Assembly (NCBI GenBank): GCA_025054695.1
Contig: JANWZI010000007.1
Location: forward strand, 333-64,332
Source: Myxococcota bacterium
GTDB lineage: Bacteria; Myxococcota_A; Polyangia; Polyangiales; JANWZI01
Reading direction: 5' to 3'
DNA: 64,000 nucleotides
Shown: positions 6,825 through 57,783 of the stretch, piece by piece
How the letters are laid out: each line of letters begins with the position of its first letter
Position numbering within the stretch: position 1 is the stretch's first letter
Notes under the pieces: generated by a model
Told to the model about the DNA's origin: nothing
What the model saw: only the letters and a program-made list of their open reading frames with translations
The model's database searches: none
Made by a program: the position numbers and the translations under genes

Positions 6825-7226
6825 ATGCACGAACGATTCTCGTGGGGCCGTGCGTGCGTCGAGATCGAGGCGAGGCCAGGCTACCTCCACGTCGTCGAGA
6901 GCGGGCGCCTCGAATCGCTCGACGAGCTTCGCGCGTATCTGCGGACGCTCGAGGACTGCATCGCCCGCACCGGTCTGCGCCGTGCCATCATCGACGCGCG
7001 CGGCGAGGAACCGGGCGCCAGCCGTCCGGATCTCGTGCGCGAGATGTGGCGCTGGCTGGGCTCGCCGGCCGCGTTCCAAAAAGTCGCGTACGTGCTTCCC
7101 GATCCGCTCGCCGTCGCTCGGGTCAACATGACGGCTCTCGCGAAGCGTCGTCCGGTCCGCGCCTTCGACAACGTGCCGGAGGCCGCCGCCTGGCTTCTGC
7201 GCACCACGCTCCTTCCCACCGCCTGA
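6825..7226 (+). CDS. Hypothetical protein, possibly SpoIIAA/STAS-like
   Basis: 133-aa high-GC3 ORF. Only weak resemblance to small STAS-like proteins. Its TGA stop abuts a hexamer array. Confidence 0.55.
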   Translation: MHERFSWGRACVEIEARPGYLHVVESGRLESLDELRAYLRTLEDCIARTGLRRAIIDARGEEPGASRPDLVREMWRWLGSPAAFQKVAYVLPDPLAVARVNMTALAKRRPVRAFDNVPEAAAWLLRTTLLPTA

Positions 7227-7313
7227 TACGCGGTCGGGCCGGGACTCGGGCTCGGCCCCAGACTCGCGCTCAGGCTTGGTCTCGGACTCTGTCTCGGACT
7301 CGATTTCGGACTC
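7224..7313 (+). repeat. Hexamer array (12 units GGACTC family) starting at the stop codon of the upstream gene
   Basis: TGATACGCGGTCGGGCCGG followed by GGACTC GGGCTC GGCCCC AGACTC ... at 7242-7313. Confidence 0.8.
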
Positions 7314-7353
7314 GCTCGTGCGTTCGAAGGCGCGTGACCCGACTCACGGGCCC

Positions 7354-10143
7354 TCAGTCCGCCGCGTCTTGGATGAACCCGCGTGCGATGTGCGGAGGAG
7401 CGGGATGGGGACCCGGAAGCGGCCGGATCGCGACGGCCGTCACCTTGAATTCCGGGCACCCCGTGAGCGGATCCCTCCCGGGTCCCGTCAGCACGTTCGT
7501 CCGCAGCTCCGGGAAGTGGAACGCCAGGAACAACTGCCCGGGCGCGACCCGACGCGACCAGCGTGCCCAGACCTGCACGCGCCCCTGCTCGCTCTCGACC
7601 TCGCAGCGCGCGCCGTCGGCGATCCCGAGCCGCGCGCCGTCGTCGGGATGCAGCTCGAGCATGTCGGTGCCCTGCAGCGCGAGGTTCGGCGTCCGGCGCG
7701 TCTGGGTGCCCGCGTTGTAGTGCGCGAGCTGCCGCCCGGTGACGAGAAGGAACGGATACCGCTCCGAAGTCTGCTGGCGCGAGGGCGTCCATTGCGCGCA
7801 GTGCAGCGCCGCGCGCCCCGAGGGGGTGTCGAATCGCTCCTCGTACAGGATGGGCGTTCCCGGATGCTCCGCGTCGAAGACCGGCCACTGCAGTCCCTGG
7901 GTCCCCAGCCGCGCGTGGGAGACGCCGCGCAGCTCCGGCGTGAGCGCCGCGATTTCATCCATGATGTCCGCCGCGTCGCGATGCGGCAGCGGACGACCCA
8001 GGCGCGCGGCGAGCTCGAGCAGCACGTCGATCTCCTCGCGCACGGCGCCCGGAGGCTCGACGACGCGCCGCACGAGCTGGATCCGCCGCTCGGCGTTGGT
8101 GAACGTGCCGGTTTTCTCGAGGAAACTGGCCCCGGGCAGCACCACGTGCGCGAACTGCGCCGTGCGGCACTCGAACAGGTCGTGCACGACGAGCAGCTCG
8201 AGCGCGCGAAGGGCCTGTTCGACCTTGTCGACCTCCGGCTCGCTCTGCGCGATGTCGTAGCCCTGCACGTACAGGGCGCGCAGCCGACCGTCGCGCGCCG
8301 CCTCGAGCATTTTGGGTAGGGTCATGCCCGGCTCCTCGGGGAGCTTCACGCCCCAGCGCGCCTCGAACGGCGCTCGCGTCGCCGGGTCGGCGAGCGGCCG
8401 ATACATCGTCAGATACGTGGGCAACGCGCCGACGTCGCTCGAGCCCTGCACGTTGTTCTGACCGCGCAGCGGATGCACCCCGCCGCCGCGCCGGCCCACG
8501 TTGCCCGTCAGCAGCGCGAGGTTGGCCAGACACCGCACCCCGTCGACGCCCTGTGCCTGCTCGGTCACGCCGAGCCCGTACGCGATGAGCGCGGGCCGAT
8601 GGCCGCCGTACAGGTGCGCCGCACGCTCGATGTCCGCGGCCGGCACGCCCGTGATCGCAGCGGCGCGCTGCGGCGTCCACGACTCCAAGTGCGCCGCGAG
8701 CGACTCGAATCCGTCCACGCGCGCGGTCAAGAACGCCCGGTCGACCAGCCCGTCGCGCACCAGCACGTGCGCGAGCGCGTTGTACAGGGCGACGTTGGTA
8801 CCCGGCCGAAGCTGGAGGAACACGTCCGCCAGGCGCACCAGCTCGATCCGCCGCGGGTCGGCGACGACGAGCCTGGCGCCGCGCAGCACCGCCTGCTTGA
8901 TGCGGGCGCCGAGCACCGGATGGCCTTCGGTCGGGTTGGCGCCCGTCACGAAGAGGACCGCGGCCTCGTCGATGTCCGAAAAGCTCCCCGTGCTCCCCGA
9001 GCGCCCGAACGAGCGGATGAAGCCCAACGAAGTCGGCGAGTGGCAGACGCGCGAGCAGTTGTCGACGTGGTTAGTGCCGACGACCGCACGCGCGATCTTC
9101 ATCACGAGGTAGTTCTCCTCGTTCGTGCAGCGGCTGCTCGAGACGAAGCCAATGGCACCCGGTCCGTACCGCGCCCGGATCTCGATCAGGCGCTCGGCCA
9201 CGAACGACAGCGCCTGCTCCCAGCTCGCCTCGCCCAGGGTTCCGTCCGCGCGGCGCAGCAGCGGCGCGCGCAGTCGCGCCTCGGAGAACGCGTACCGGAA
9301 GGCGAACCGGCCCTTGAGGCACGCGTGCCCGAGGTTGCTCGGCCCGTCCGGCGCCGGGTGCATCGCGACGACGGCTCCGTCCCGCACGACCGCGTCGAAC
9401 CCGCAGCCGACGCCGCAATAGGCGCACGTCGTCCGCACGACGCGATCGACGGGGGCCCCCTTGCCCAGGCCTCGGTCCTCGATGGCGCCCGTCGGACAGC
9501 TCGCCGCGCACGCGCCGCACGAGACGCACGCGCTGGCCTCGAACCCCACGCCCGGACCGGCCGCGATGACCTCGTTCCAGCCGCGCCCCGCATACGTGAG
9601 GGCGAACGTCCCCTGCACCTCGTCGCACGCGCGAACGCACCGCCCGCACAGGATGCAGCGCTCCAAATCGAGCGCGAGGTAGGGATGGCGCTCGTCGCGT
9701 CTCGCCGCTCGTCGCGGTCCGTCGAAGCGCGAGCCGTGCAGCCCGAAGTGACGCGCGACGGCGTCGAGCTCGTCGGCATTGTAATCTGGATTGCAGTTTG
9801 CGTCGCCGGCCGCCGCAGCCCGCTCGGGCGGCCGCACCTCCGAGAGCACGAGCTCGACGACCGTGCGCGCGACGCGGCGCGCGACCGGGTCGTCGGTCCG
9901 CACGACCAATCCCGGCTGCGCGGGTGTCGTGCACGCCGCGACGGGCCCGCGCGCCCCCTTCACGCCCACCAGGCAAACGCGACAGCTGCCGACGGCCGAC
10001 AGGTTCGGCTGCCAGCACAGCGTCGGAACGTACACGCCCGCGCGCCGCGCCACCTCGAGGAGGCTTTCGCCCGGCCGCGCCCGAACCGTCTTGCCATCGA
10101 GCTCGATGTCGAACGTGGGTGTCTTGCCGTTCGTCGGGCTCAT
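7354..10143 (-). CDS. fdhA: NAD-dependent formate dehydrogenase alpha subunit (molybdopterin, Cys-type)
   Basis: Internal ATG ([17 protein letters not shown]) of track ORF 7354..11937. N-terminal 2Fe-2S region, 4Fe-4S motifs [11 protein letters not shown] and [12 protein letters not shown], Mo-bisPGD domain with active site [14 protein letters not shown] overlap with the upstream gene. Confidence 0.92.
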
Positions 10144-11927: not shown

Positions 11928-12009
11928 CGTCGCCCATCGTAGCGCAGGACGACGCGCGAGGCGTCCCTCGCCACTCCCATGGGGCGCTCCATGAACGCGG
12001 AACGCGTTG

Positions 12010-12228
12010 GAGTCCGAGGCGGAGCCCGAGTCCGAGTCCGAGTCCGAGTCGGAGTCCGAGTCGGAGTCCGAGTCCGAGTCCGAGCCCGAGGCCGAGTCCG
12101 AGTCCGAGTCCGAGCCCGAGTCCGAGTCCGAGTCCGAGTCGGAGTCCGAGTCCGAGTCCGAGTCCGAGTCCGAGCCCGAGTCCGAGTCCGAGTCCGGGCC
12201 CGAGCCCGAGTCCGACCCGATGCCGTCA
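12010..12228 (-). repeat. Largest hexamer array (35 units; plus strand GAGTCC/GAGCCC/GAGGCC/GAGTCG)
   Basis: Units counted at 12010-12219, 26 of them containing GAGTC. On the minus strand the array follows the phoD stop directly (TGACGGCATCGGGTCGGACTCGG). Confidence 0.95.
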
Positions 12229-13710
12229 GGGTCCCGTCCGGCGGAGCCACGGCTCGCCGTGGCGCACCTCGAAGCGCGCCGCCACGCGCTCGCGACCCCC
12301 GTCGGGACGCTCGACGTCCTCGACGAACCGATGCTCCGCGAGCAGCCGCTCGGGCGTGATCTCGAGCCATAGCCATCCTCGGTGCTCGGCGTCGACGAAC
12401 TTCGTCTCCGGGCTGGCCGCGCGGACCATGGCTTCGAACGCGCGCGCCTCGGCGCCGAAGAGATTCGGCGAGCTGACGGCGGGTGTCATCAGCTCGACCG
12501 CAACCGAGCCGCGTCCGGTCGCCGGGTCGTACGTGCGGCGATCCAACGGCACGTCCTGCGCGAAGCTCTTGTGGCCATCGCCACACAGAAACACCACGCC
12601 CTCGATTCGCTCCGACGCAACGAGCTCGAGCAAGGCATCGCGCTCCACCGCCCACCCGTCCCACGCGTCGAGGTTCCAGAACTCCGGGTGCGGGGAGAAC
12701 TGGACCGCTCCCGCGACGAGCTTCCAGCGCGCCCGGGACGCGCGAAGTCCTTCGAAGAGCCAGCGGCGCTGGCCCTCCCCGAGCATCGAGCGGCCCGGCG
12801 CGCGCGCCTCGCGTTCGTCGGCCGGCGGACGGTCGCGCTGCAAGCGCGTGTCGAGCACGAACAGCTCGACCAGATCCCCGAATCGCAGCGAACGCCACAA
12901 CGGCTCGACCGATCCGAGCGGCATCCACTCCGCGTAGGCGCGCGTCGAGGCGCGCAGGCGCTCGGCCCACGGTCCTTCGGTGGCCTCGTCGTGCCACGGC
13001 GAGCCGCCGGGCCAGGCGTCGTTGGCGTGCTCGTGATCGTCCCACGTCGCGACCAGCGGGTGCATGCCGAGCAGCGCCACCAGGTCGGGGTCGAGCCGGT
13101 AGTGGGCGTGCCGGCGGCGGTAATCGTCGAGCGAGCGGCATTCGTGCGGCGGATCGTAGGCGCGCAGCGAGCCGTAGAACCCGTCGGCCACCTCGTAGAT
13201 GAAGTCGCCCAGGTGCAGCACGGCGTCCAGATTGGTAACCTGAGATACATTTCGATAGACGTGGAAGAACCCGTGCGCGTAGCTCGCGCACGACAGCACC
13301 GCGAGCCGAACGGACGGCACCTCGCCCTCCCCCGCCGTGCGCGTCCGCCCGACGGCCGAGCGCTCGCCCCGAACCGTCTCGAACGCGTAGTACAGCGTGC
13401 GGCCCGGGGGCAGCCCATCGACTTCGGCGCGCACCGTGTGACCCGCCGACTCGAACGCGACCAGCTCGCGACTCGCCACCACGTCGCGCAACGCCTCGTC
13501 GGTCGCAACGAGCAGCCGCAGCGGCTCGTCCCCCACCGCCTCGGCCAGATGCGTCCAGAAGACCACTGCATCCGCTCGCGGATCGCCCGTCGCGACTCCG
13601 CGCCGAAAACGGCCCCACGTCGGTGAGCGACCGTCCGCCCCGCACGCTCCGAGCCACGTTCCGGCCATCGCGCCGACCACCCCGCGCAACAGCTCCCTGC
13701 GCAACACCAT
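12226..13710 (-). CDS. phoD: Alkaline phosphatase D family protein (PhoD)
   Basis: Tat-like N-terminus (RRELLRG). PhoD metallophosphatase motifs [21 protein letters not shown]. Confidence 0.88.
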
Positions 13711-13755
13711 CGAGCGTTATAGCGGCCAGCTTGCCGCACGCGAGGCCGCAGGCCC

Positions 13756-13866
13756 GAGCTCGGGCTCGGACTCAGGCTCGGACTCTGTCTCGGTCTCGCA
13801 TTCGGGCCCCCTCGTCACGAGGGGCCGTGGCCCCGCGCTCCGCTCAACCGCCCGTGGAGGTCAGTT
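13756..13866 (+). repeat. Hexamer array (8 units) plus degenerate right module overlapping the gltX 3 prime end
   Basis: Array at 13756-13803. The flank contains GCTCAACC..GTG..GTCAG, similar to the module at 6250-6279. It includes the gltX stop (GGTTGA on the minus strand). Confidence 0.65.
13805..13836 (-). terminator. GC-rich hairpin downstream of gltX (possible intrinsic terminator, no U-tract)
   Basis: CCCCTCG-TCA-CGAGGGG 7-bp stem (13808-13824), with an overlapping GGGGCC..GGCCCC alternative. It begins about 8 nt after the gltX stop on the minus strand. Confidence 0.35.
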
Positions 13867-15292
13867 GACTCGGGCGGGGGTCGGCAGCCCGCAGCCGCGC
13901 CACCGTGCGCTCCTTGCCAAGCACCGCCATGACCTCGAACAGGCCGGGGCTCGCGGTGCGACCGGTCAGCGCGACCCGCGCGGGCTGTGCGACCTGCTTG
14001 AGCGATCGCCCCGTCTGTTGAAGCCACTGGTGAACGCGCGCTTCGAGCGTGGCCGCGTCGAACGGCTCGACCGTTTCGAGCAACGCGGCGAGCTCCTCGC
14101 GCGCCGCGCGCGTCGATTCGACGAGGAATCGCGCGGCCGCCTGCTCGTCGATCCGCGGCGGCTCACGGAAGTAGAAGTCGACCATGTCGGCGACGTCCAC
14201 GAGGGTGACGGCGCGCGTCCGCACGGTCGCGACGGCCGCCTCCAGCGTGCGCCGATCCGGCCGCAGCCCCGCTCGCTCGAGAAACGGCATGGCGAGCTCC
14301 GCGATGCGTGCGTCGGAGAGCGCGCGCAGGTGCTCGGCCTGGATGTAGGCGAGCTTTTTCGGATCCCAGCGCGCGGCGGTCGCGCCCACCCGCGACCAGT
14401 CGAAGAGCGCGACGAGCTCGTCTCGGCGGAACACTTCCTGGTCGCCGTGCGACCAGCCCAGGCGCGCCAGGTAGTTGAGCAGCGCGTCGGGAAGGTAGCC
14501 CGCGTCGCGGTACTCGGTCGTGCTCACCGCTCCGTCGCGCTTGCTGAGCTTCTTGCCGTCTTGCCCGAGGATCATCGGCAAATGCGCAAACCGCGGCGGA
14601 GTGCGGCCGAGCGCCTCGTAGAGCAGGAGCTGCGGCGGCGTGTTGACGACGTGGTCGTCGCCGCGCGCGACGAGCGTGATGCCCATTTCGACGTCGTCGA
14701 CGACGCACGCGAAGTTGTAGAGCGGCAGGCCGTTCTGACGCAGCAGCACGAAGTCCTGCTGCTGCTCGTTGGGGACGTCGATGCGGCCCTTGACCAGATC
14801 CACGAAGCCGGTGCTGCCCGTGCGCGGCGCGCGGAGCCGGATGGCATACGGGGCATCGGAATGGGGTGGAGGCCGACGACCGTCCCGCCACGGGCTGACG
14901 AACCGGAAATCGCGCCCGCCACGCGCCTCGTGGGCGGCACGGGCCGCCTCGACTTCCTCGCGCGTCGCGTAGCAGCGGAACGCGTGGCCCGTCGCGACGA
15001 GCCGCTCCGCGTACGCTCGATACAGCTCGAGCCGCTCGCTCTGGAAATACGGTCCGTGCGGTCCGCCGACTTCGGGCCCTTCGTCCCAGTCGAGGCCGAG
15101 CCATCGCATCGATTCGAGGATGACCGACGTCGACTCACGGAGGTTCCGATCGACGTCGGTGTCCTCGATGCGGAGGATGAACGAGCCGCCGTGTCGTCGC
15201 GCCCACAGCCAGTTGAAGAGCGCCGTACGCACGCCGCCGATGTGCAGGTAGCCGGTGGGAGATGGGGCGAAGCGGACGCGGACCTCACTCAT
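13844..15292 (-). CDS. gltX: Glutamate--tRNA ligase
   Basis: Internal ATG (MSEVRVRFAPSPTGYLHIGG) of track ORF 13844..15340. HIGH (HIGG) and KMSKS (KLSKR) motifs. Confidence 0.95.
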   Translation of the reverse strand: MSEVRVRFAPSPTGYLHIGGVRTALFNWLWARRHGGSFILRIEDTDVDRNLRESTSVILESMRWLGLDWDEGPEVGGPHGPYFQSERLELYRAYAERLVATGHAFRCYATREEVEAARAAHEARGGRDFRFVSPWRDGRRPPPHSDAPYAIRLRAPRTGSTGFVDLVKGRIDVPNEQQQDFVLLRQNGLPLYNFACVVDDVEMGITLVARGDDHVVNTPPQLLLYEALGRTPPRFAHLPMILGQDGKKLSKRDGAVSTTEYRDAGYLPDALLNYLARLGWSHGDQEVFRRDELVALFDWSRVGATAARWDPKKLAYIQAEHLRALSDARIAELAMPFLERAGLRPDRRTLEAAVATVRTRAVTLVDVADMVDFYFREPPRIDEQAAARFLVESTRAAREELAALLETVEPFDAATLEARVHQWLQQTGRSLKQVAQPARVALTGRTASPGLFEVMAVLGKERTVARLRAADPRPSQLTSTGG

Positions 15293-15354
15293 GACGCCGG
15301 GCGGGCAATCGTGCCGACATCGGTCCGTCCGCGCAATCACGGCGCCATGACGGC

Positions 15355-15514
15355 GGATTCGGGCTCAGGCTCCGACTCGGGCTCGGACTCGGGCTCGGGC
15401 TCCGACTCAGCCTCGGGCTCGGACTCGGACTCGGTCTCGGGCTCGGGCTCGGTCTCCGACTCAGCCTCGGACTCGGGCTCAGGCTCGGACTCGGACTCCG
15501 ACTCGAACGACTCC
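15355..15514. repeat. Hexamer array (about 25 units GGACTC/GGGCTC/GGTCTC/CGACTC/AGCCTC)
   Basis: Units counted at 15355-15504, between the gltX start and the SDR stop. Confidence 0.95.
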
Positions 15515-15571
15515 CGGTCGCAATCGGGCGTCGTTCAGGCGTCGTCCTTCGTCCGACGCGGCAGCCCAGGC

Positions 15572-16396: not shown

Positions 16397-16451
16397 GGGT
16401 GAGCCGTAGCACGCGCGCGCCGGACGTCGGGCGGCCGGCGCTGCGAACGTC

Positions 16452-18176: not shown

Positions 18177-18267
18177 GGTCGAAGCATGCGGGCTCGTTCG
18201 GGTCGCGTCCACGTCTCCGTCGGCAAGCCGTATGCAGCGCTCACCGCGAGGGTTGGGTTGCTCGATC

Positions 18268-18330
18268 GCGGCTCCGACTCGCCCTTGGGATCCGTCCCGG
18301 AATCGGGCTCGGACTCCGATCGGGCTCGCG
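18268..18330. repeat. Degenerate hexamer array
   Basis: CGGCTC CGACTC ... GGAATC GGGCTC GGACTC CGATCG GGCTCG. Same gap as the composite element at 18377. Confidence 0.5.
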
Positions 18331-18376: not shown

Positions 18377-18513
18377 TGACAGCGCCGGCCAGTGGGTTGA
18401 TCGCGCTTTCTACTCGGGCTCGGGGTCGGTCTCGGCCTCGGACGCGGGCACGGACCCGGTCTCGGTCTCGCAACACTCCCCGGCCACGTCAAGCAACGTC
18501 ACCGCCGCTATCA
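18377..18513 (+). repeat. Composite MITE-like element copy A: left module, 9-unit hexamer array, right module, 12-nt inverted termini
   Basis: TGACAGCGCCGGCCAGTGGGTTGATCGCGCTTTCTACTCGG, array at 18416-18469, then CGCAACACTCCCCGGCCACGTCAAGCAACGTCACCGCCGCTATCA. Mobility unproven. Confidence 0.8.
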
Positions 18514-18954
18514 GGGGATCGAACCGTCGCCGTCCGGCGGGCCGCCGTCCGCGGGCGGAGGGATCGCATCGTCGGTGCCTGCGGCGTCGCGCGGGGCGTC
18601 CTCGCGCGTCTCGCCGTCTCCACGCATCGCCGCGTCCGGAGAGCTCGCCTCGCCCGTGTCGGTCCCCGCGTCGGCTGCACGCGCGTCGTCCGTCGCAGCG
18701 TCACGCATCGTGCCGTCGGTGCCCGCGTCGGAAGCTCCGGCATCCGTCCCGCTCGTCTCGCAGCGCGACGCGCAGACGCCGCGCGCGGTCAGCGCGACGC
18801 TCGCCTTGCAGCAAACCAGACCGTCGGAGCAATCCGACTGCAATTCGCACGAATCACCCTCGGCGCCCGTGCAGGCCATGGCGGTCGTCACAAAGACCAC
18901 CGCCCAGCCATGCCTGCAACCGCGCAACACGCGTCCTGCACGCACGCTCGCCAC
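18511..18954 (-). CDS. Hypothetical Cys-cluster lipoprotein with acidic Asp/Ala/Thr/Gly-rich tail
   Basis: Signal/lipobox [10 protein letters not shown]. Cys cluster [16 protein letters not shown]. Its stop codon is the TGA inside the terminal motif of the adjacent repeat element. Confidence 0.5.
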
Positions 18955-19199: not shown

Positions 19200-19444
19200 A
19201 TTCGGAATCGCCGTGAAAGTGTTGCGAGCCCGAGACCGATCCCGAGCCTGAACCTGAGCCCGAGCCCGAGTCCGAGTCCGAGACCGAGTCCGTGCCCGAG
19301 CCCGAATCCGAGTCCGAGCCCGAGTCCGTGCCCGAGCCCGAATCCGAGTCCGAGCCCGAGTCCGTGCCCGAGCCCGAATCCGAGTCCGAGTCCGAGCCCG
19401 AGACCGAGTGGAATCGCGATCAACCCACGTGGCCTGCGCGGTGA
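19200..19444 (-). repeat. Composite element copy E (reverse orientation) with a 30-unit array including three 36-bp higher-order repeats
   Basis: Array at 19226-19405. Minus-strand left module TCACCGCGCAGGCCACGTGGGTTGATCGCGATTCCACTCGG. The other end shares CGCAACACT and then diverges. Confidence 0.75.
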
Positions 19445-19539: not shown

Positions 19540-20139
19540 TCACGGCGGCGCGCGAAGCACCATCACGATGTGTCCGCTCGGGCCGGGCCGCGGATCGGCC
19601 TGTCCGGGATCTCGAGTCAACGCGACCGTGAGTGCGACGGCCCCACCGGCCACGAGCACGCCCACAGCAGCCCAGAACCACGGACTCGACAACAAACCGT
19701 GGGATGATGGCTCGGAGCTGACGGCGGCTGGCTGCTGTCGCAATCGGGCCTCGATGCGCTGCTCGCGCTCCAGCTCTCGTTCGAGCACGCGGACGCGTGC
19801 CTCGACCTCCGCGCGTACCGCACTGTCCGGCTCGGCCTCCAAGAAGCGTCGATACGCTTCGAGGGCCTCGCGGTCGTGGCGCAGCCGGTCGTGCGCGAGC
19901 CCGATGTTGTACAACAGTGCCGCCCGTCCGCTCAGCTCGTACGCGCGCTGGAATCGCTCGAGGGCGAGCTCGTAGCGTCCCGCCGCGTACGCGTCACGCC
20001 CCTCGACGAACGCGCGGCGAGCCTCCGCGTCCGCCTCTGACGGCACCCCGGAAGGCTCGGATTGAGCCGCACTGCGCGCGGGATTGCCGGCGAGCACGAG
20101 CCACGTGCCGATGCAGCCCACGACGACACGCATGCGCAC
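19540..20139 (-). CDS. TPR-like repeat protein with signal peptide and C-terminal TM anchor
   Basis: [18 protein letters not shown] and [16 protein letters not shown]-like helices, a coiled segment, and the TM helix [21 protein letters not shown]. Confidence 0.7.
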
Positions 20140-20154
20140 CCGGTCAGCATAACC

Positions 20155-20208
20155 GAGACCGAGACCGAGACCGAGTCCGAGTCCGAGTCCGAAACCGGGT
20201 GCGAGCCC
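20155..20208. repeat. Hexamer array (9 units GAGACC/GAGTCC)
   Basis: Direct reading, between a gene start (20139) and a gene stop (20233). Confidence 0.85.
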
Positions 20209-20232
20209 ACAGCCGCTCGGGCGCCGGCCGGC

Positions 20233-20673
20233 TCAGCCTGCGTGCCGTTCGACGAGGCGTCCGAGCCGCGGGACGGCCTGCTCGACGTTGCGCTTGGCCG
20301 TGCCGCGGAGCTTGTCGTAGGTGCCCCGAATGAGCCCGTTGGTCGTTCTCCGCGCCTTCTCGTCGGTGATGGCGAGCAGGGCGTCGGCGACGCGGCCCGC
20401 GTTGCGCTCGAAGTATCCCGCGATGGGCTCGGCGCGACCGACCGCTTCTTGATAGATGGGATCGAGCGCCGCGGCGAACTCCGGCAGCAGATCGCGCACG
20501 ACGTTGCGGATGAACCCCGGCTTGATGCCCTTGACCGCCGCGTACCCCGCTTTGATGGCGAGCCCGCTGATTCCCGTCTTGTCGCGCACTTCGTCGTCGA
20601 CGAGCTGCACGCACTCGTCGATCACGGTCTGCTTGCGTCGCTCGTCCGTGAGCAGCTCGGGCAGGCTCGGCAT
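20233..20673 (-). CDS. Conserved hypothetical protein
   Basis: Full 146-aa track ORF with high GC3 and no recognisable motif. Confidence 0.65.
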   Translation of the reverse strand: MPSLPELLTDERRKQTVIDECVQLVDDEVRDKTGISGLAIKAGYAAVKGIKPGFIRNVVRDLLPEFAAALDPIYQEAVGRAEPIAGYFERNAGRVADALLAITDEKARRTTNGLIRGTYDKLRGTAKRNVEQAVPRLGRLVERHAG

Positions 20674-22110: not shown

Positions 22111-22159
22111 TCCGCGGCTCGCGGCACTCCACGCTCGCGGGCGCGCCGACGCGCCGCGC

Positions 22160-22237
22160 GAGACCGGGAGCGAGACCGAGACCGAATCCGAGTCCGAGCC
22201 GGAGACCGAGACGCAACCCGAGTCCGAACCCGAGGTC
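22160..22237. repeat. Hexamer array (13 units GAGACC/GAGTCC/GAATCC)
   Basis: Direct reading, in the convergent gap between argG and the thiolase gene. Confidence 0.85.
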
Positions 22238-22252
22238 GGGCGCGGCTCTCGG

Positions 22253-26473: not shown

Positions 26474-26635
26474 GAGCCCGAGCCCGAGTCCGAGCCAGAG
26501 CCCGATTCCGAGTCCGACACCGATTCCGAATCCGACTCCGAGACCGAGGCCGAGTCCGAGTCCGAGTCCGATACCGAGCCCGTGGCCGAGCCCGAGCCCG
26601 AGCCAGAGCCCGATTCCGAGTCCGAGTCCGTGTCA
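26474..26635. repeat. Hexamer array (26 units) with an internal duplicated block of about 42 bp
   Basis: Units counted at 26474-26629. The block GAGCCCGAGCC.GAG.CAGAGCCCGATTCCGAGTCCGA occurs at both ends. The array ends GTGTCAGCTC. Confidence 0.9.
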
Positions 26636-27630: not shown

Positions 27631-29013
27631 ATGGACCGCGACGACCCGACGCCGCGGAGCGAGCCTCGCGACGAGCTGCAGGCCCTGTTCGAAGCGCTGC
27701 GCGCGCAGCCTCAAGCGCCTGCGACCCTCTGCGGCGGACAGCAACCGTTGCACACCGTCTACGGCGGCGCCCATCTGTTTCGCGCCGACGTGGCGGTACG
27801 CCTCGGCCGCCGCGCGCTCGAAGCGCTCGAGCGCTGGGCCCCGGACGCGCGCGCTTTCGCGCGGGCCATCGGCATGCGCGGCGCCGACGACCCCGCCGAC
27901 CCCTTGCCCGAACGCGTCCATGCCCGCGTCCGCGCCCGCCTCGAACGGTTGCCCGTCGAAGATCTGCGGGTCGACTTCGAGGACGGTTTCGGCGTGCGCT
28001 CCGACGCCGAAGAGGACGAGCACGCCGATCGCGTCGCGCAGCAGCTCGTCGAAGGCGCCCGGAACGGGACGCTTCCGCCGTTGGTGGGCATCCGCGTCCG
28101 GGCGCTGGACGAGACGAGCGCGGCCAGGGCGGTGCGAACGCTCGAGCGCGTCGTACGGCCCGTCGGCACCGCGCTCGGCACGCTGCCGTCCGGGTTCGTC
28201 GTCACGTTGCCCAAGGTGCGCTGCGCCGCGCAGCCCCGGACGCTCGCGCGCCTCCTCGACCGGATCGAGCGCAGCATCGGCCTGCCGCCGCGGACGATTC
28301 CCATCGAGCTGATGATCGAGCTTCCCCAGGCGCTTTTCGGACCGGACGGTCGCATCGTCGTGCGCGACCTGCTCGACGCCTGCGAGGGGCGTTGCCGCGG
28401 CCTTCACTTCGGCACCTACGACTACACCGCAGCGTGCGACGTGACGGCCGCGCACCAGGCGATGGACCATCCGCTGTGCGACTTCGCGCTCGCCGTGCTC
28501 AAGAACGCGCTCTCGGGCACCGGGGTCTGGCTCTCGGACGGCGCGACGACCGAGCTGCCGGTGCCGCCGGAGCCCGAGTCGGGCGACGAGCCCGATCGTG
28601 CACGTCGAAACGCGGCGAGCGTGCACGCGGCCTGGCGCCGGATGTATGCGAACGTCCAGCGCGCGCTCCGCATGGGCATCTACCAGGGCTGGGACCTTCA
28701 CCCGGCCCAGCTTCCGGTGCGTCACGCCGCGGTGCAGGCGTTCTTCCTCGAGGGCATCGATTCGCTGCTCGAACGGCTCCGCAACTTCGTCGATCGGGCG
28801 GCACGCGCGACCCGGACGGGCGCGCTGTTCGACGACGCCGCGACGGGCCAGGGGCTGCTCAACCACGTTCTGCGCGCGCTCCATTGCGGCGCCATCGACG
28901 TCGCGGATCTCCAGGCCGTCGGACTGGCACCCGACGAGATCGCCACGCGCTCCTTTTCGCGGATCGTGGCCGCACGGGCGATTTCCGAGGAAGCCGACCG
29001 ACCCCACCCCTGA
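27631..29013 (+). CDS. HpcH/HpaI aldolase - citrate lyase beta-like TIM-barrel protein (family not resolved)
   Basis: 460-aa ORF. LRVDFEDGFG, IELMIELPQA and HFGTYDY resemble the metal/substrate motifs of CitE/HpcH enzymes. Confidence 0.55.
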   Translation: MDRDDPTPRSEPRDELQALFEALRAQPQAPATLCGGQQPLHTVYGGAHLFRADVAVRLGRRALEALERWAPDARAFARAIGMRGADDPADPLPERVHARVRARLERLPVEDLRVDFEDGFGVRSDAEEDEHADRVAQQLVEGARNGTLPPLVGIRVRALDETSAARAVRTLERVVRPVGTALGTLPSGFVVTLPKVRCAAQPRTLARLLDRIERSIGLPPRTIPIELMIELPQALFGPDGRIVVRDLLDACEGRCRGLHFGTYDYTAACDVTAAHQAMDHPLCDFALAVLKNALSGTGVWLSDGATTELPVPPEPESGDEPDRARRNAASVHAAWRRMYANVQRALRMGIYQGWDLHPAQLPVRHAAVQAFFLEGIDSLLERLRNFVDRAARATRTGALFDDAATGQGLLNHVLRALHCGAIDVADLQAVGLAPDEIATRSFSRIVAARAISEEADRPHP

Positions 29014-29015
29014 GC

Positions 29016-29141
29016 GAGCCGGAGTCCGAGTCCGAGACAGAGCCCGAGTCCGAGACAGATGCGGAGCCCGAGTCGGAGTCGGAGTCCGAGACCAAGTCCA
29101 AGCCCGAGCCCGCACCCGAGTCCATCGCCGCGCCCGAGCCT
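29016..29141. repeat. Hexamer array (about 21 units GAGTCC/GAGACA/GAGCCC) starting 3 nt after the upstream stop codon
   Basis: TGAGCGAGCCGGAGTCCGAGTCCGAGACAGAGCCC... It lies upstream of dnaK. Confidence 0.85.
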
Positions 29142-29320
29142 GAAGATGACGATCGCCGCGGCAGCCTGGCGCCCCCTCGGACCGAAACGGCGGCCCCATG
29201 AGCCCGTACTGCGGCCGGCACGCCCCGTGCCAGCGATCCCGACGCAGTCCTTGCGACCGCGGACGGGGTGGTTATCTTCGGGCCGTCGCTCGCGGTCGGC
29301 GAGCGCGGGACGAGGCAACC

Positions 29321-32150: not shown

Positions 32151-32375
32151 GTCACGGCGGCCGGGCCAGCGTGGTTGATCGCGCCTTCTACTCGGTCTCG
32201 GACTCGGACTCGGCCTCGGCCTCGGGCTCAGGCTCGGGCTCTGGCTCGGACTCGGACTCTGGCTCGGTCCCGGCCTCGGACTCGGTCTCGGTCTCGGTCT
32301 CGGACTCGGTCTCGATCGCGGACTCGGACTCGCAAAACCCCTCGGCCACGTCAACCTACCTGACCGGCGCTGTCA
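32151..32375 (+). repeat. Composite MITE-like element copy B: left module, 23-unit array, right module, terminal CCGGCGCTGTCA
   Basis: GTCACGGCGGCCGGGCCAGCGTGGTTGATCGCGCCTTCTACTCGG, array at 32194-32331, then CGCAAAACCCCTCGGCCACGTCAACCTACCTGACCGGCGCTGTCA. Its terminal 12 nt are the exact reverse complement of the copy A left terminus. Confidence 0.85.
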
Positions 32376-32414: not shown

Positions 32415-32936
32415 TCAGCCTCCGGACGGACTGGCCGCGCCAGGCTCGACGCCTGCGGTGGGACGCTCGCCGACCCGGATGCCGACGACGAGGGTTCCTC
32501 CCTCGTGCTGCTGGCCCGCCACGAAGAACGGATCGCCCGGCGAGGCAACCACCTGGAGCAGCGGCAGGTAATCGTTCTGACCCGGCCGATTGATCGAAAC
32601 GCGAACGCGGTACCGACCATCCGGCGTCAGCTGCTGCAGGATGATTTGCAGACGGCGACCGTTGGGCAGCTCGACCATCGCAGGCTGGGCCGCGCGCAGC
32701 TCCAGACGGGGCCGCGCGAGCACTTGCATCTGCCGGAACGCGTTGAACGGCGGCCGCGCGAGCGCCGCGATGCCGGCGAGTTGCGGATCGACGGCACCCG
32801 GCTCCTCGCGTGCGAGCACGATGAGTACCTCCGCGCGGACCGCGCGTGCCGGTTGCGCGCCCACCGTCGGCGGACGCACCGAAAGGGCCGCGATCGATGC
32901 AATCGATGCGACGAGTCCGCATGCCCTCGCGCTCAT
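32415..32936 (-). CDS. Hypothetical secreted protein co-transcribed with the ECF sigma/anti-sigma pair
   Basis: Internal ATG ([20 protein letters not shown]) of track ORF 32415..33230. ATGA overlap with the anti-sigma stop. Confidence 0.6.
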
Positions 32937-35741: not shown

Positions 35742-36527
35742 TCAGTCGAGCCGCGTCGCATTCGACGACGAAACGCCACCGTCGGCGGGTCGGTTGCTTC
35801 CGACGTCACCCCAGACGGCAACCCGTCCCCCGAGAGCCTCGTCGAGTTGTGCGTCGATGTCGTCGAAGAATGCCGCGAGGGGCTCTGCGTGAGCCAGGCG
35901 CAGCGCGAAGGCGTTCGCCATCGCGACGAGCATCGCGTCGGGATCCTGCTCCAGCCGACCGAGCAACGCGTAGGCGCCGTAGCACGCGCCGTAGTCCACC
36001 GGCTCCGTCTCGCAGAGCGACACCAGCTTCTGCGCCTCCGACATCGACTGCTCGCGGTGACCCGACGCCGCGAGCGCCACCGACAGCCCGAGCGCGACCG
36101 GTGTCGCCGCCAGATCCGGATCCGCGCGCAGCGCTCTGCGATAGGCGGCCACCGCAGCCGCGTGTCGGCCGAGCTTGACGTAGGCATCCCCGATCATCGT
36201 CCAGGCCACCGGCCGGTTCCAACGCTCGATGCGGCCGGCGTACAACGCCCGACGAAGCCTGCGAACGGCGGCCTGTGGGCGACCGTCCTCGATATCAAGG
36301 TACGCGCGGCCGAGCTCCCCGTCGGTCTCGCCGCCACAGAACATGGCCTCCTCGTGGCCGAGCTCGATCTCGGCCTCCGTCGTCTGCTGTGGCGTTTCTT
36401 CCGGCAACGCGCGCAGTGCGTCCAGACCAGCCCCGGGCGGTGGTTCCAGGCTCGGCTGGGCTCGCAGTCCCGAAGGAACGACCAGCAGCACGCACGACAG
36501 TCCGAACAGAGCGCTTCCGAGGCTCAT
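35742..36527 (-). CDS. Secreted TPR-like repeat protein
   Basis: Internal ATG (MSLGSALFGLSCVLLVVPSGLRA) of track ORF 35742..36794. TPR-like helices (IGDAYVKLGRHAAAVAAYRRALRADP). Confidence 0.65.
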   Translation of the reverse strand: MSLGSALFGLSCVLLVVPSGLRAQPSLEPPPGAGLDALRALPEETPQQTTEAEIELGHEEAMFCGGETDGELGRAYLDIEDGRPQAAVRRLRRALYAGRIERWNRPVAWTMIGDAYVKLGRHAAAVAAYRRALRADPDLAATPVALGLSVALAASGHREQSMSEAQKLVSLCETEPVDYGACYGAYALLGRLEQDPDAMLVAMANAFALRLAHAEPLAAFFDDIDAQLDEALGGRVAVWGDVGSNRPADGGVSSSNATRLD

Positions 36528-43612: not shown

Positions 43613-43614
43613 GC

Positions 43615-44298
43615 ATGCGTGCGGCCACGGCGACCATCCGCTCCGAAAGCACGACCGGAGCGTCGGGCGCGCCCGCGGTTCCAGCACTGTACGTGTTGCT
43701 CGAGCCTAGAAACCCGGAGCACGCCGCCGCGCTCGCAAATGCCGTCGTCGAAGGCGCCGGCACGATTCGGCTCGCCCTGTGCGTCCGTCGGCGCGGGGCC
43801 GCGGCGCACGAACAAATCGATCTGCTGCGCGCTGCTGCGTCCGTCGCACGCCCTCGAAGCGTCGAGGTCTGGCTCGCGGCCGATCCGGCGCTCGCGCGAC
43901 AGGCTGGGGCCGACGGAGCGCACCTTCCGGACCGAACGGCATTGGGAACGACGGCGGCCCGCGACGTTCCGCTCGCGATGTCCGTGCACGACCCTGCGGG
44001 GCTCGAACGCGCGGCCGCCATCGGCGCCCGTTTCGCGGTGCTCGCGCCCATCTTCGAGGTACCTGGCAAAGGCCCGCCGCTCGGCCTCGGGCGGCTCGCT
44101 CGTCTCGTCGCCGGCGCGACGCTGCCGGTGCTGGCCCTGGGCGGCATCGGGCCCGAGCACGTCGCCGAAGTACTCGGCACGGGCGCCGCCGGCATCGCGG
44201 TACTGCGAGGGATCGCGGAGGCTACCGATCCGCGCGAAGCGGCCGCGCGTTATGCCGAGGCGCTCCGCATCGCGTGCGGCGCGCGCGTGTCGCGCTGA
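43615..44298 (+). CDS. thiE: Thiamine-phosphate synthase ThiE
   Basis: Internal ATG of track ORF 43162..44298. TIM-barrel motifs MSVHD, FAVLAPIFEVPGKG, PVLALGGIGPEHV, GIAVLRGI. Confidence 0.8.
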   Translation: MRAATATIRSESTTGASGAPAVPALYVLLEPRNPEHAAALANAVVEGAGTIRLALCVRRRGAAAHEQIDLLRAAASVARPRSVEVWLAADPALARQAGADGAHLPDRTALGTTAARDVPLAMSVHDPAGLERAAAIGARFAVLAPIFEVPGKGPPLGLGRLARLVAGATLPVLALGGIGPEHVAEVLGTGAAGIAVLRGIAEATDPREAAARYAEALRIACGARVSR

Positions 44299-44340
44299 CC
44301 GGAACGTGGGACGGCGGTCGGATGGATCGAGGTGATCTCC

Positions 44341-44418
44341 GAGACCGAGTCGGAGTCCGAGTCCGAGCCCGAGGCCGTGCCTGAGTCCGCGTCGGAGTCC
44401 GCTACCGAGTCAGAGTCC
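44341..44418. repeat. Hexamer array (13 units GAGACC/GAGTCG/GAGTCC)
   Basis: Direct reading, in the convergent gap between thiE and rpiB. The flank on the rpiB side contains GGTTGA, which includes the rpiB stop. Confidence 0.85.
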
Positions 44419-44454
44419 CTGTGGGAGACCGGGATCGACTCGCCCCCACCCTCC

Positions 44455-48337: not shown

Positions 48338-48343
48338 GCGCCT

Positions 48344-49099: not shown

Positions 49100-49227
49100 G
49101 GGGCGCTCGACCGAGCGCGCTACTATGGAAACGAGCCCGCGTCTGTCAAGGAGAACCGCGCATGGCTGGCCGCCTCGATTCGCCGCCTACGTGTCAGCAC
49201 AGGGCCGACCAGAGCGCGGCGACCATC

Positions 49228-49390
49228 GTGACAGCGCCAACGGGTTGGTCGGTGGTGCGGACCGAAGCTGCGACTCCGAGCCCTGGACCGACCCCGAGTC
49301 CAAGTCCGAGCCCGAGCCCGACTCCGAGTCCGTTTCCGATTCCGAGCCCGAGCGCGTGCCCGAGTCCGAGACCGAGGCCGAGTCCAAGTC
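49228..49390. repeat. Terminal-motif variant TGACAGCGCCAA plus a 20-unit hexamer array
   Basis: TGACAGCGCCAACGGGTTGGTCGG at 49228, array at 49271-49390. An inverted TGTCA..TGACA pair lies at 49193-49233. Confidence 0.75.
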
Positions 49391-49417
49391 CCCGATGGAG
49401 GCATCGATGCGCGACGC

Positions 49418-50825: not shown

Positions 50826-50845
50826 GGGACGGTGCGTACCGTCCC
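50826..50845 (+). other. Perfect 8-bp hairpin in the 5 prime leader of the TPR gene
   Basis: GGGACGGT-GCGT-ACCGTCCC, ending 35 nt upstream of ATG 50881. Confidence 0.3.
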
Positions 50846-50880
50846 GAGCATCCCCCGATTGCCGACCGAGGTCCAATCCA

Positions 50881-52218: not shown

Positions 52219-52228
52219 CGCCCGCGCC

Positions 52229-52963: not shown

Positions 52964-53085
52964 GTGCATCCCACCCGAACGGCCCCGCGCGCGGTCGCGG
53001 CACGCGCGTCGTGACCCCATCCCCGGCATGGCGTAGAACCGCGGGGCCCGTGCAGACCGAAGAGCCGAACGTCTCCGGCGCCGTC

Positions 53086-53607: not shown

Positions 53608-53721
53608 CCGTCTCTGCCGAGGGGACTGCCCTCAGCGACACGGAGCTCGACCGCGCCCCGACTCGGAGCCGCAGCGCGGGCCTGCCATCCCCCCGCGGAT
53701 CGACCCACGAGCCCGACGCGG

Positions 53722-55580: not shown

Positions 55581-56200
55581 GTGACCCCGTCGCACGCTCC
55601 GATCGACTCGCCTCGGTCGCCGTCGGCGTCGAGGTCGAACCGATCGTGGCAGCAACCACCGGTCTCGATGCAACAGCGCTGGAGCTCGGGCGAGTCGCGG
55701 TGCTCGAAGGCGACGTCGATGCAGCGCTCGGGAATCTCCTCGCGATCGATCTCGCGGCATCGGCCGAACGAGCGCCCGTCGGCCGCGCACGTCTGCCGTC
55801 CCCAGTAGTAACAATACGAGAGAAAGCAGACGCGCTCCGAGCCGGGCTCGCACAACCTGCACGCAACCGCGCACGCGGACATGCGTCCGGCGACGCACAG
55901 GCGCAGACCCCCCCCGGGGCACGGCTCCGGCGGCAGCTCGTCGACGCGCCCGTCGCAGTCGTCGTCCCGTCCGTTGCACGTCTCGGGCGCCGGCACGCAT
56001 CGCGCGGCCGGGCCATCCGCCTCAGTCCCATCGAGGGGAGCGTCCAGGCCGACGTCCGTGGCGCCCGGCGCCGCGTCGGCGTGCGGCCCGTGCGGTGGGA
56101 CCTCGGCGCGTCGCGCCGAGCGCAGCGGCGAGCGGCCACACGCCACGGTGGTGAGCGAAACGAGCAGAGCGGCGAGCCCTCGTAGGCCGGCGACCCGCAT
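55568..56200 (-). CDS. Cys-rich lipoprotein with MopE-type putative metal-binding motif
   Basis: Lipobox LVSLTTVACG. Motif CNGRDDDCDGRVDE. About 24 Cys in 210 aa. Confidence 0.7.
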   Translation of the reverse strand: MRVAGLRGLAALLVSLTTVACGRSPLRSARRAEVPPHGPHADAAPGATDVGLDAPLDGTEADGPAARCVPAPETCNGRDDDCDGRVDELPPEPCPGGGLRLCVAGRMSACAVACRLCEPGSERVCFLSYCYYWGRQTCAADGRSFGRCREIDREEIPERCIDVAFEHRDSPELQRCCIETGGCCHDRFDLDADGDRGESIGACDGVTCGS

Positions 56201-56398
56201 CCTGTCTCGAGTGTAGCGCCATGCGACGCGAGGCTCCGTCCCCGGCGCCGTGCCGATCCCCGCCGGGCGCCGCCACCCGGTGCAGACGTGGATCGATGGC
56301 GCAGATCGGTTGCGATGCTCGGAGCGCGGCTTCGACTCCCACGTCGATCCCGCCGCTCGGCCGAGAAGGCCTCGAGGGTGCTGCGCGACGCCCGCCCG

Positions 56399-57505
56399 TC
56401 AACCGCTCGCCCCGGGTCGCCCCTCGCTGACGCGCGTCCGAGGCAACCAGCTTCCTCCGTGCTGCTCCCGGAGCCAACGGAGCATGTGCTCGCGCAGCGC
56501 AAAGCGCAGATCGAAGAGCTGCCCGACCTCGGCGCTCGCCGTCAGGCGCAACTGCACCGCGCGATCGGTGCAGTCGCTGACCACGCAGCGGGCATGCCGG
56601 CGGCTCCAGGCCGGATGGCCCTCGAGGAATCGCATCATTTCCGCGCGGATGGCCTCCACGTCGGCCGTGAAATCCACCCAGAGGAACACGATCCCGACGA
56701 GGTCGCCCGGCTTGCGCGTCCAGTTGACGAACGGCCTGTCCAGAAACGTCGTCAGCGGAACGACCATCCGGCGCTCGTCCCACAATTGCACGAGCGCGTA
56801 CGTCAGACCGATCTCCTCGACGGTGCCCCATTCGCCTTCGATCACCACCGCGTCACCGACGCGCACCGGCTGGGTGAGCGAGAGCTGCAGCCCCGCGAAG
56901 ACCGAACCGAGCGAGCGCTGCGCGGCCAGGCCGAGCACGAGCGAGGCCGCGCCCGCGGATGCGAGCACCGACAGACCGAGCGAGCGCACGACGTCGAACT
57001 GCACGAGGGCGAGCCCCACGCCGACGACGACGACGACCACGCGCAGCACACGTCCGATGACCTGCGCCCGCGTCCGAAGCGCGCGCACCGAGTGCGGATC
57101 GACCCCCGCGTCCTGCGTTCGCCGCTCGATCGCCCACTGCACGAGGTCGACGAGCTTCCAGGCGAAGAACGCCGCGCCGAACGCGAGCAGCAACCGGCCC
57201 GCGAACGTCGCGACGAGCCGCGGGCCGGGCACGAGCCGCGGCAGCTCGTAGGCAAGACGCAACAGGGCCGCGAACAGACCGAAGCGAACCGGGGCGACGA
57301 AGAGGCGCACGGCCGTGTCGTCCCAGTCCGCGCGCGTGCGCGCGGCCAGCCGGCGCGCGCTCGCCCCCAGAAGGGCCGAGACGAGGCGGCCGAACGCATA
57401 GGCGACCGGAACCGCGAGCAGGAGCCAGAGCCACTGCCAGGCCGGAGCGCCGCCCACCGAAACGCCGAGGAACGCGAGCCAGGTCGGGAGATCGACGTCG
57501 AACAC
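56399..57505 (-). CDS. Mechanosensitive ion channel family protein (MscS-like)
   Basis: TM helices followed by the MscS beta-domain motif VRVGDAVVIEGEWGTVEEIGLTYALVQLWDERRMVVP. Confidence 0.9.
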   Translation of the reverse strand: MFDVDLPTWLAFLGVSVGGAPAWQWLWLLLAVPVAYAFGRLVSALLGASARRLAARTRADWDDTAVRLFVAPVRFGLFAALLRLAYELPRLVPGPRLVATFAGRLLLAFGAAFFAWKLVDLVQWAIERRTQDAGVDPHSVRALRTRAQVIGRVLRVVVVVVGVGLALVQFDVVRSLGLSVLASAGAASLVLGLAAQRSLGSVFAGLQLSLTQPVRVGDAVVIEGEWGTVEEIGLTYALVQLWDERRMVVPLTTFLDRPFVNWTRKPGDLVGIVFLWVDFTADVEAIRAEMMRFLEGHPAWSRRHARCVVSDCTDRAVQLRLTASAEVGQLFDLRFALREHMLRWLREQHGGSWLPRTRVSEGRPGASG

Positions 57506-57622
57506 GCGCCTCGTTTACATCGAAACGCAAAGGCGCGGTCGAGGCAGGCCCGAGCGGGTCAGGGCGCAGCCCAGGACGCTCGCCGGTGCTGAGCGGGATT
57601 TCGCGGCCAAGGCCGAAGCCGC

Positions 57623-57783
57623 GCCACGTCAACCCGCCCCCGAGCTCCCAGCGGCGGTCACGTTGCGTGACGTGGCCGAGGCCTGCTGCGAGGCCGAGTC
57701 CGAGACGGAGGCCGAGACCAAGGCCCAGGCCGAGACCAAGACCGAGTAGAAGGCGCGATCAACCAGACTGGCCGGCACTGTCA
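57623..57783 (-). repeat. Composite MITE-like element copy D (reverse orientation)
   Basis: Minus strand reads TGACAGTGCCGGCCAGTCTGGTTGATCGCGCCTTCTACTCGG, then a 12-unit array (57678-57749), then CGCAGCAGGCCTCGGCCACGTCACGCAACGTGACCGCCGCT. An extra inverted GCCACGTCA lies at 57623. Confidence 0.8.

Follow-up and report, generated by a model that had tools for sequence, protein, structure and literature searches.

The stretch analysed here, hereafter the window, comprises 64,000 nucleotides of a Myxococcota bacterium (assembly GCA_025054695.1, contig JANWZI010000007.1, positions 333 to 64,332) and carries many copies of a repeat built around arrays of the hexamer NCCGAG. These copies probably belong to a lineage-specific, non-coding, modular interspersed repeat family that resembles the pneumococcal BOX elements and whose members are tolerated at the 3' ends of genes. 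The initial annotation had proposed that element termini abut or overlap at least seven gene 3' ends. The coincidence with stop codons is genuine for two copies, probable for a third one and overstated for the remaining four. The family, very dense in this uncultured Myxococcota lineage, is previously undocumented, whereas the donation of stop codons is itself already known for modular bacterial repeats. Since pneumococcal BOX elements show the same documented behaviour, no new mechanism is revealed. The window provides a GC-rich, non-Firmicutes example of a modular repeat that supplies stops and short C-terminal tails to ordinary genes, such as gltX.

Anatomy of the repeat

Tandem Repeats Finder (TRF) and a periodic-pattern scan identified 20 arrays of NCCGAG (CTCGGN on the opposite strand), with about 4 to 34 units per array; TRF assigned a period of 6 and 8-34 copies at 11 loci. 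In perfect units, N is T in 47% and C in 30%. Higher-order periods of 12-36 nt are found in several arrays. The e19 array (19225-19408) contains a 36-nt unit repeated five times with 89% identity, and A6 (15354-15505) is organised in 30-nt units. These higher-order repeats point to growth through duplication of multi-unit blocks, besides slippage of single units.

Conserved modules flank arrays e18, e19, e32 and e57 as well as a short copy, A2. Eight end modules were found in the window, and element length is 90-230 nt. These copies, their closest degenerate relatives and the genes that they touch are as follows:

e57, 57646..57783, plus strand: full element with 5' module 57647-57698 (E=2e-13), array 57671-57746, TAGAAGGCGCGA, and 3' module 57742-57783 (E=1.4e-12).
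P0001, 57781..58491, minus strand: 236-aa membrane protein; its stop coincides with the TGA at the end of e57 (plus-strand TCA, 57781-57783).
e18, 18377..18513, minus strand: full element with 3' module 18377-18417, array 18413-18470 and 5' module 18461-18513 (E=5e-12 and 6e-15).
Small lipoprotein gene, 18511..18945, minus strand: lipobox TAMAC, Cys-rich domain and D/T/A/G-rich tail.
A7, 18242..18316, minus strand: degenerate copy near e18, with a weak 3' module at 18242-18281 (E=0.16) and a short array at 18270-18316.
e32, 32152..32375, minus strand: full element, an array of 24 units between its two end modules; the stop of gene 32415-32936 is 39 nt away.
e19, 19217..19444, plus strand: array and 3' module 19404-19444, without 5' module, 95 nt from the stop of gene 19540.
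A2, 6193..6279, minus strand: 5' module 6227-6279 (E=2.4e-14) and short array; its bare end lies 25 nt past the stop of the sigma-factor gene 5256-6167.
A5 region, 13744..13849, minus strand: array 13744-13807, GC hairpin 13805-13826 and 5' module core 13831-13849 (GGTTGAGCGGAGCGCGGGG).
gltX, 13844..15292, minus strand: stop 13844-13846, the TGA of the A5-side module core.

On the NCCGAG strand, the 5' module reads TGAYAGCGSCGGTSAC.T.G.TTGACGTGGCCGRGG..TGYTGCGAG and the 3' module TAGAAGGCGCGATCAACC.ACTGGCCGGCRCTGTCA. Over their outer ~25 nt, the two are imperfect inverted repeats of each other, with consensus TGACAGCGSCGGYCA..TGGGTTGA, and the end motif of the element is TGACAGCG...GGGTTGA. 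The inverted-repeat relationship is supported by the 3'-module profile, which also matches the 5' modules of e32 (E=0.0055) and A2 (E=0.19). [quoted passage not shown] In addition, a 23-nt string, GGTTGATCGCGCYTTCTACTCGG, is identical at three unrelated loci.

Overall, the layout is of the BOX type, with a 5' module, a tandem (NCCGAG)5-34 and a 3' module, and with partial copies that lack one or both modules. Like MITEs, the elements are short, multi-copy and non-coding: 20 arrays and eight end modules occur in 64 kb, with no conserved open reading frame (ORF). Weaker module remnants are seen beside A7 and A15, and a further cluster lies just beyond the window. The contig sequence that reaches beyond the window (L090) gave access to ~12 kb more, ~76 kb in total; this additional part contains six further arrays or array remnants and one further end module.

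Many arrays, bare ones included, open with the junction TGCGAG or TGCGAC, which reads Cys-Glu or Cys-Asp in the GAG frame (13802-13807, 15520-15526, 18466-18471, 19219-19227, 32333-32338, 49265-49270 and 57684-57689). This shared junction suggests that bare arrays derive from the modular element. Just upstream of e57, at 57602-57645, a short NCCGAG-like remnant is accompanied by an inverted module core, GCCACGTCAACCC, the reverse complement of GGGTTGACGTGGC; elements are therefore head-to-head or nested at this place. Within the same segment, GCCACGTCA...TGACGTGGC could form a 9-bp hairpin.

Stop codons at the element ends

All the sequences quoted in the initial annotation were recovered at their positions, and its gene ends agree with the NCBI calls on a near-identical record. 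Two of its observations are exact. The stop codon of P0001 (57781-57783) corresponds to bases 1-3 of the e57 3' end module, TGACAGTGCCGG, and the stop codon of the lipoprotein gene (18511-18513) to bases 1-3 of the e18 5' end module, TGATAGCGGCGG, where a TAG follows immediately and gives tandem stops. Four module ends face a stop in the window; two of them overlap it exactly and the other two lie at 39 and 95 nt. Under uniform placement in the available spacer, the probability of at least two exact overlaps is 2e-4, or 8e-4 when 60 nt are reserved for promoters.

TGA opens five of the eight end modules, and three of these face no gene end (18377, 32375 and 6279). Because such modules open with TGA as well, the TGA of the overlapping ends is element sequence. 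The module found outside the window in L090 also opens with TGACAG. Read inward, the end modules display a TGA in frame 1 at position 1 and, in most copies, a TGA in frame 2 at about 23-25, within the GGTTGA core; in the 5' module, the open GAG frame occupies frame 3. Therefore, with TGA at positions 1-3 and ~23-25, translation that enters an element end meets a stop at once in two of three frames.

The third case is gltX. Its GGTTGA together with the next 13 nt (GGTTGAGCGGAGCGCGGGG) matches the core of the A2 5' module, GGTTGAGCTGACCGAGGGG, at 16 of 19 positions, where 0.03 matches per window are expected; all other matches as good as this one are true modules. Relative to array A5 (13744-13807), the match has the side and strand expected of a 5' module. 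This supports a location of the gltX stop inside the GGTTGA core of a module, which we regard as probable. Here, a shorter module puts the TGA of the core in the frame of the gene. The C-terminal tail of the protein, ADPRPSQLTSTGG, continues for 13 aa after the point where the closest homolog, P0003 (75% identity), ends; tails in the family range from 0 to 13 aa, and it is plausible, if not proven, that the last ~7 codons and the stop are derived from the module. Between the gltX stop and A5, a GC hairpin, GGCCCCCTCG-TCA-CGAGGGGCC (13805-13826), is found in what appears to be an expanded 5' module. It might represent the stem of a terminator lacking a U tract.

The remaining genes named in the initial annotation adjoin the following arrays:

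A4, 12010..12215, plus strand: 34 GAGTCC units, the purest array, 10 nt from the phoD stop (12226), with degenerate units in the gap.
A13, 29015..29143, plus strand: 1 nt past the stop (29011-29013) of the DUF6986 gene and 177 nt upstream of dnaK.
A3, 7234..7314, minus strand: between two converging genes, 6825-7226 and 7354, whose stops lie at 7 and 39 nt, respectively.
A15, 44307..44438, plus strand: degenerate 5' module 44307-44349 (E=0.0015) and array 44339-44438; the stop of gene 43693-44298 precedes the module by 8 nt, and the rpiB stop (44455) is 16 nt away from the array end.

The same GGTTGA core had been proposed for rpiB. There, only GGGTTGA(G) matches the module, at 10 of 11 bases, and the match falls short of significance (E=3; alignment score 17, with background scores of 20-24). 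Of the two core-type stops, only that of gltX is thus retained. For phoD, the DUF6986 gene (27631..29013) and gene 6825-7226, at which degenerate termini had been described, neither profile nor pairwise alignment detected a significant end module; a bare array simply adjoins the stop at 10, 1 and 7 nt, respectively. The claim of at least seven gene ends without any spacer is therefore too broad, the array-to-stop gaps in the window running from -3 to 145 nt with a median of ~36. Furthermore, the seven cases do not constitute a single phenomenon, as they comprise stops at the terminal TGA, stops at the internal GGTTGA and bare arrays beside stops.

Three genes of the window end with GGT TGA (binomial P=0.04). 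The third one encodes an MscS-like protein (56399-57505, GGT TGA at 56399-56404); GGT is a rare codon (1.2%), and no array or module is recognisable downstream of this gene. A comparable gene end occurs in L090 at 20130-20385, ~7.5 kb upstream of the window start, where an ABC-ATPase gene ends with GAG GGT TGA. The GGTTGA is followed by 17 nt and then by GCGAG, a spacing identical to that of the 5' module, and a cluster of three arrays and two 3'-type modules lies downstream. To judge from this arrangement, another module core probably serves as the stop codon of the ABC-ATPase gene.

The initial annotation also considered that insertions could have replaced native C-termini and stops. For gltX, this finds some limited backing in the 13-aa tail and the ~7 module-like codons. 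In contrast, the conserved Pfam domains are complete in the phoD, gltX, rpiB and DUF6986 proteins, and that of rpiB reaches to 5 residues from the protein end. The family of the lipoprotein was collected by a search of representative protein sequences. With 144 aa against a family median of 129 (range 73-208, 94 representative sequences), the lipoprotein falls within the family range and is therefore neither truncated nor grossly extended. The family is marked by a lipobox, a Cys-rich domain, a D/T/A/G-rich tail and the motif C-x-[LV]-x3-DC-x2-GL-x-CCK, and has no Pfam model. For P0001, no homolog was found besides itself. The suggested comparison with orthologs thus yielded an extension relative to the nearest homolog for gltX and no truncation for the lipoprotein.

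Placement, variation and alternative explanations

Apart from the two 3-nt stop overlaps, none of the 20 arrays overlaps a coding sequence (CDS). In a window that is 85% coding, they make up 23% of the intergenic DNA, with about one array per 3 kb. Arrays are present in 15 of the 21 same-direction spacers of at least 90 nt, in three of the five convergent and in one of the four divergent spacers. The two orientations are equally represented on the window (10:10), and no rule appears relative to the upstream gene (5:7). No gene of the window continues reading into any array. The arrays not yet listed are located as follows:

A6, 15354..15505, minus strand: between the gltX start and the stop of SDR gene 15572, 66 nt from the latter.
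A12, 26474..26634, plus strand: with the stop of the Rce1-like gene 26675 at 40 nt.
A16, 49271..49391, plus strand: 26 nt from the stop of ORF 49418.
A11, 22159..22238, plus strand: between convergent argG and thiolase genes, with stops at 48 and 14 nt.
A10, 20153..20208, plus strand: in a 99-nt spacer, 24 nt from the stop of gene 20233.
A1, 4838..4947, minus strand: sole array in a spacer between divergent genes.

The gaps between arrays and the stops that they face are -3, -3, 1, 7, 10, 14, 16, 24 and up to 145 nt, whereas downstream start codons lie 19-271 nt from the elements. In 12 of 15 same-direction spacers the element is nearer to the upstream stop than to the downstream start (p=0.018), and the mean relative position is 0.27 (p=0.001). 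With the 60 nt before the next start barred, the mean relative position rises to 0.385, and p becomes 0.076. Purifying selection on promoters and 5' untranslated regions (UTRs), that is, tolerance without any targeting, explains most of this broad stop proximity, because insertions hitting these regions are selected against. The proposal of the initial annotation that insertion targets stop-proximal DNA is therefore borne out as regards proximity and not as regards targeting. The bias fades once promoter space is reserved, and no common motif was found in the flanks of the element copies in the window. The distance test that it called for gives a similarly divided answer when carried out on the window: exact overlaps exceed the placement null (2e-4 to 8e-4), while the general bias weakens under the 60-nt correction.

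Strain comparison was possible with JAVQYH010000005.1, a 119,956-bp contig of a Myxococcota metagenome-assembled genome (MAG, GCA_033577305.1) that is 99.8-99.9% identical to the window, with a background divergence of ~1 differing site per kb. Against this record, A4 (12055-12142) shows two separate 6-nt indels and 8 substitutions, and the remaining arrays in the compared stretches are identical. With head-to-tail repeats whose copy number differs between strains, A4, the longest array, is a hypervariable variable-number tandem repeat (VNTR). Its variability fits a length variation that scales with array size. The family as a whole appears young or confined to one lineage, because the array junction is absent from sequence collections and the gltX spacers of relatives are devoid of arrays. 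Indeed, the junction GGTTGATCGCG..TTCYACTCGG has no match in 185,579 representative genomes, and among JGI metagenome contigs it has only three, all of them chance matches inside coding sequence. The nearest gltX homologs have 60% identity among GTDB representatives and 75% and 67% in a large protein collection; no arrays are found in the gltX-flanking spacers of these relatives at 60-75% identity.

We therefore favour the following scenario, which remains a model. Copies would be selfish or neutral DNA that survives only where it is harmless, in intergenic DNA and mainly just downstream of CDSs. The central microsatellite (NCCGAG)n would lengthen and shorten through slippage or unequal exchange, and many copies would have lost one end module or both. 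A gene running into an element end would terminate at once in two of three reading frames. Copies landing on or just inside the last codons would then leave the protein essentially intact and be kept, so that the annotated stop would be element sequence. The exact overlaps are best explained by such ends that terminate translation harmlessly. We infer both the mobility of the element, by transposition or recombinational spread, and the role of selection as a filter.

Several points weigh against this scenario. The exact-overlap statistic amounts to two events among only four stop-facing module ends. Neither a transposase gene nor an insertion sequence (IS) with matching ends is present among the called genes of ~76 kb, which leaves mobility hypothetical. 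A target-site duplication was not found in the flanks of e18, e32, e57, e19 and A2, where only e32 has TCA...TCA. No empty site is available from any related strain, and none of the relatives offered an orthologous spacer. The two ends of a single element are merely ~70% alike, and the family is GC-rich, unlike classical AT-rich MITEs. Finally, end modules are missing from most arrays, some of which may thus have originated or spread differently.

If the copies were instead functional 3'-end modules, comparable to repetitive extragenic palindromes (REPs) or bacterial interspersed mosaic elements (BIMEs), transcripts of the upstream gene would be terminated or stabilised by them, or its translation termination modulated, and selection for this function would place them. 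The preference for stops over starts in 12 of 15 same-direction spacers, the occurrence of both orientations, as with REPs, and the strong GC hairpin between the gltX stop and A5 agree with this idea. Moreover, the outer ~12 bp of both end modules pair in the predicted minimum-free-energy folds, and canonical terminators were not seen near the arrays, although scans for terminators and sigma-70 promoters are uninformative in GC-rich DNA. However, neither strand of e18, e32 or e57 reaches a better total fold energy than its shuffled counterparts (z from -0.9 to +1.2), and an Rfam search of the elements at gathering threshold returned no family match; a structured or known RNA was rejected on these two grounds. 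As the stop distances are scattered between -3 and 145 nt, the stop bias weakens to p=0.076 with promoter space reserved, the same spacers in relatives contain no elements and the length of one array differs between strains, we hold this function to be unlikely. An even more directed use of the gene 3' end, in which the stop codon would be an actively exploited safe harbour through TGA- or termination-directed insertion, or in which the ends would have been selected as portable two-frame stops, seems very unlikely to us. If true, it would mean that thousands of copies could spread in a gene-dense genome at almost no cost.

The overlaps could also be mostly fortuitous. In short spacers filled with arrays, and with 92% TGA stops, repeats containing TGA or TTGA would sometimes fall on stop codons. 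The caution expressed in the initial annotation about the dominance of TGA was justified, since 54 of the 59 genes in the window stop with TGA. The non-significant rpiB match, the MscS-like gene (56399) that ends with GGT TGA with no adjoining element and the lack of a recognisable end module at phoD, the DUF6986 gene and gene 6825 all go in this direction. Yet chance accounts poorly for two exact overlaps among four ends (P ~2e-4 to 8e-4) and for the gltX match, which has an expectation of 0.03 per window and stands exactly where the 5' module is expected. Hence, coincidence is decidedly unlikely as the main explanation.

A coding role was considered as well, in which full copies would be small genes encoding acidic peptides, ..AAVTL[RL]DVA..CCE(xE)n*, and overlaps between stop and start signals would couple their translation to that of the upstream gene; the ORFs in mycobacterial interspersed repetitive units (MIRUs) have been interpreted in this way. 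The GAG frames of e18 and e57 do read in this way, and in e18, e57 and e32 no stop interrupts the frame between the 5' module and a TAG in the 3' module, with DVA..C(C)E conserved. The G+C content at third codon positions (GC3) is very high, and in e18 a GTG lies 12 nt past the stop of the lipoprotein gene on the same strand. MIRU ends overlap adjacent genes (PMC3184786). On the other hand, e19 has no start codon and a TGG in place of the TAG, the only possible start of e32 is an internal GTG, and the bare arrays have neither the TAG nor another defined stop. The e57 element points against its neighbour P0001, and the 5:7 ratio provides no orientation rule with respect to the upstream gene. 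The high GC3 is an automatic consequence of the GAGNCC repeat, whose units vary at the first, non-silent position of the NCC codon and not at the silent third one. The NCBI annotation pipeline (PGAP) calls no gene at the elements. Given that start and stop codons are not conserved and that an orientation rule is absent, a small acidic peptide gene was rejected, and we consider this reading highly improbable.

Known bacterial repeats and genomic context

BOX elements, which reportedly go back to Martin in 1992, share most features of the window family. They are boxA-boxB(n)-boxC composites with inverted-repeat similarity between their ends and occur preferentially downstream of CDSs (Croucher et al. 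2011, PMC3049150). Longer BOX arrays are more variable between strains, and a BOX repeat encodes the stop codon of 36 pneumococcal CDSs with no clear truncation of the protein (PMC3049150). In both families, two differing end modules with inverted-repeat similarity flank a variable-number tandem array, copies are intergenic, favour DNA downstream of CDSs and include clustered as well as partial ones, strain variability increases with array length and the repeat supplies stop codons. The comparison concerns the architecture only. Among the differences, the boxB unit measures 45 nt as compared to 6 nt here, the window family is GC-rich with a weak rather than strong predicted RNA structure, and it occurs in a Myxococcota MAG instead of Streptococcus.

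Bacterial MITEs occur as many short, non-coding copies that have terminal inverted repeats and stops in several frames; fusions to the 3' ends of ORFs are known in some cases (PMC2229807, PMC5896051 and PMC2759123). Like Correia/NEMIS, ERIC/RU-1, RUP and the Coxiella QMITEs, the window family is short, non-coding and multi-copy, with inverted-repeat ends and stops in several frames. It differs from them in that neither a target-site duplication nor a partner IS was found in ~76 kb, in that its repeats are ~70% alike, in its internal microsatellite, unusual for a MITE, and in not being AT-rich.

MIRUs are units of 40-100 bp, with ORFs in the operon direction that overlap the stop and start of flanking genes (Supply et al. 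1997, cited in PMC3184786). Like the window family, they are GC-rich tandem repeats in intergenic DNA within operons, with ends overlapping adjacent genes, strain-variable copy number and imperfect terminal inverted repeats (PMC3184786). In contrast to MIRUs, whose orientation is fixed, the window elements have a 6-nt unit, occur in both orientations and overlap only stops.

REPs, found in enterobacteria and pseudomonads, are associated with RAYT transposases and known to act in mRNA stability, and cyanobacterial STRR heptamers form dispersed intergenic arrays. REPs are imperfect palindromes of 21-65 nt (PMC3184786). REP and BIME copies are like those of the window in being extragenic, usually downstream of stops, in both orientations and in clusters. 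The window family has no stable palindrome unit, and no RAYT/Y1 transposase gene is present in the region. The Xanthomonas/Nostoc heptamer forms dispersed intergenic simple-sequence arrays in one lineage (PMC4692102). Heptamer arrays of both kinds resemble the window family in their intergenic 6-7 nt unit repeated at many loci of one lineage, but conserved inverted-repeat end modules are not described for them. In practice, elements of the kind found here blur annotated gene 3' ends, break MAG assemblies and offer VNTR markers for strain tracking.

The window has a G+C content of ~71%. Its gene map was derived from codon statistics and agrees with the genes called on the near-identical public record; Pfam confirms phoD, gltX, rpiB, the DUF6986 gene and dnaK. 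Two Logan contigs of run SRR15826901 are also nearly identical to JAVQYH010000005.1. In L090, 15330-19422 spans ~4 kb with no recorded gene, although ORFs of 485 and 823 aa are present; this segment has no Rfam match and is therefore not an rRNA locus. On the minus strand of the window, 59155-64000 contains two very large ORFs, of ~855-883 aa and >734 aa, without Pfam match, whose internal repeats (families D9-D12) are rich in Asp, Cys, Gly and Pro. The few sites at which the window and the public record differ are unevenly spread and form clusters, with 4-7 of them within ~150 nt or less at 1422-1506, 12502-12634, 36058-36066 and 56711-56873, which suggests recombination tracts or a mixed-strain consensus.

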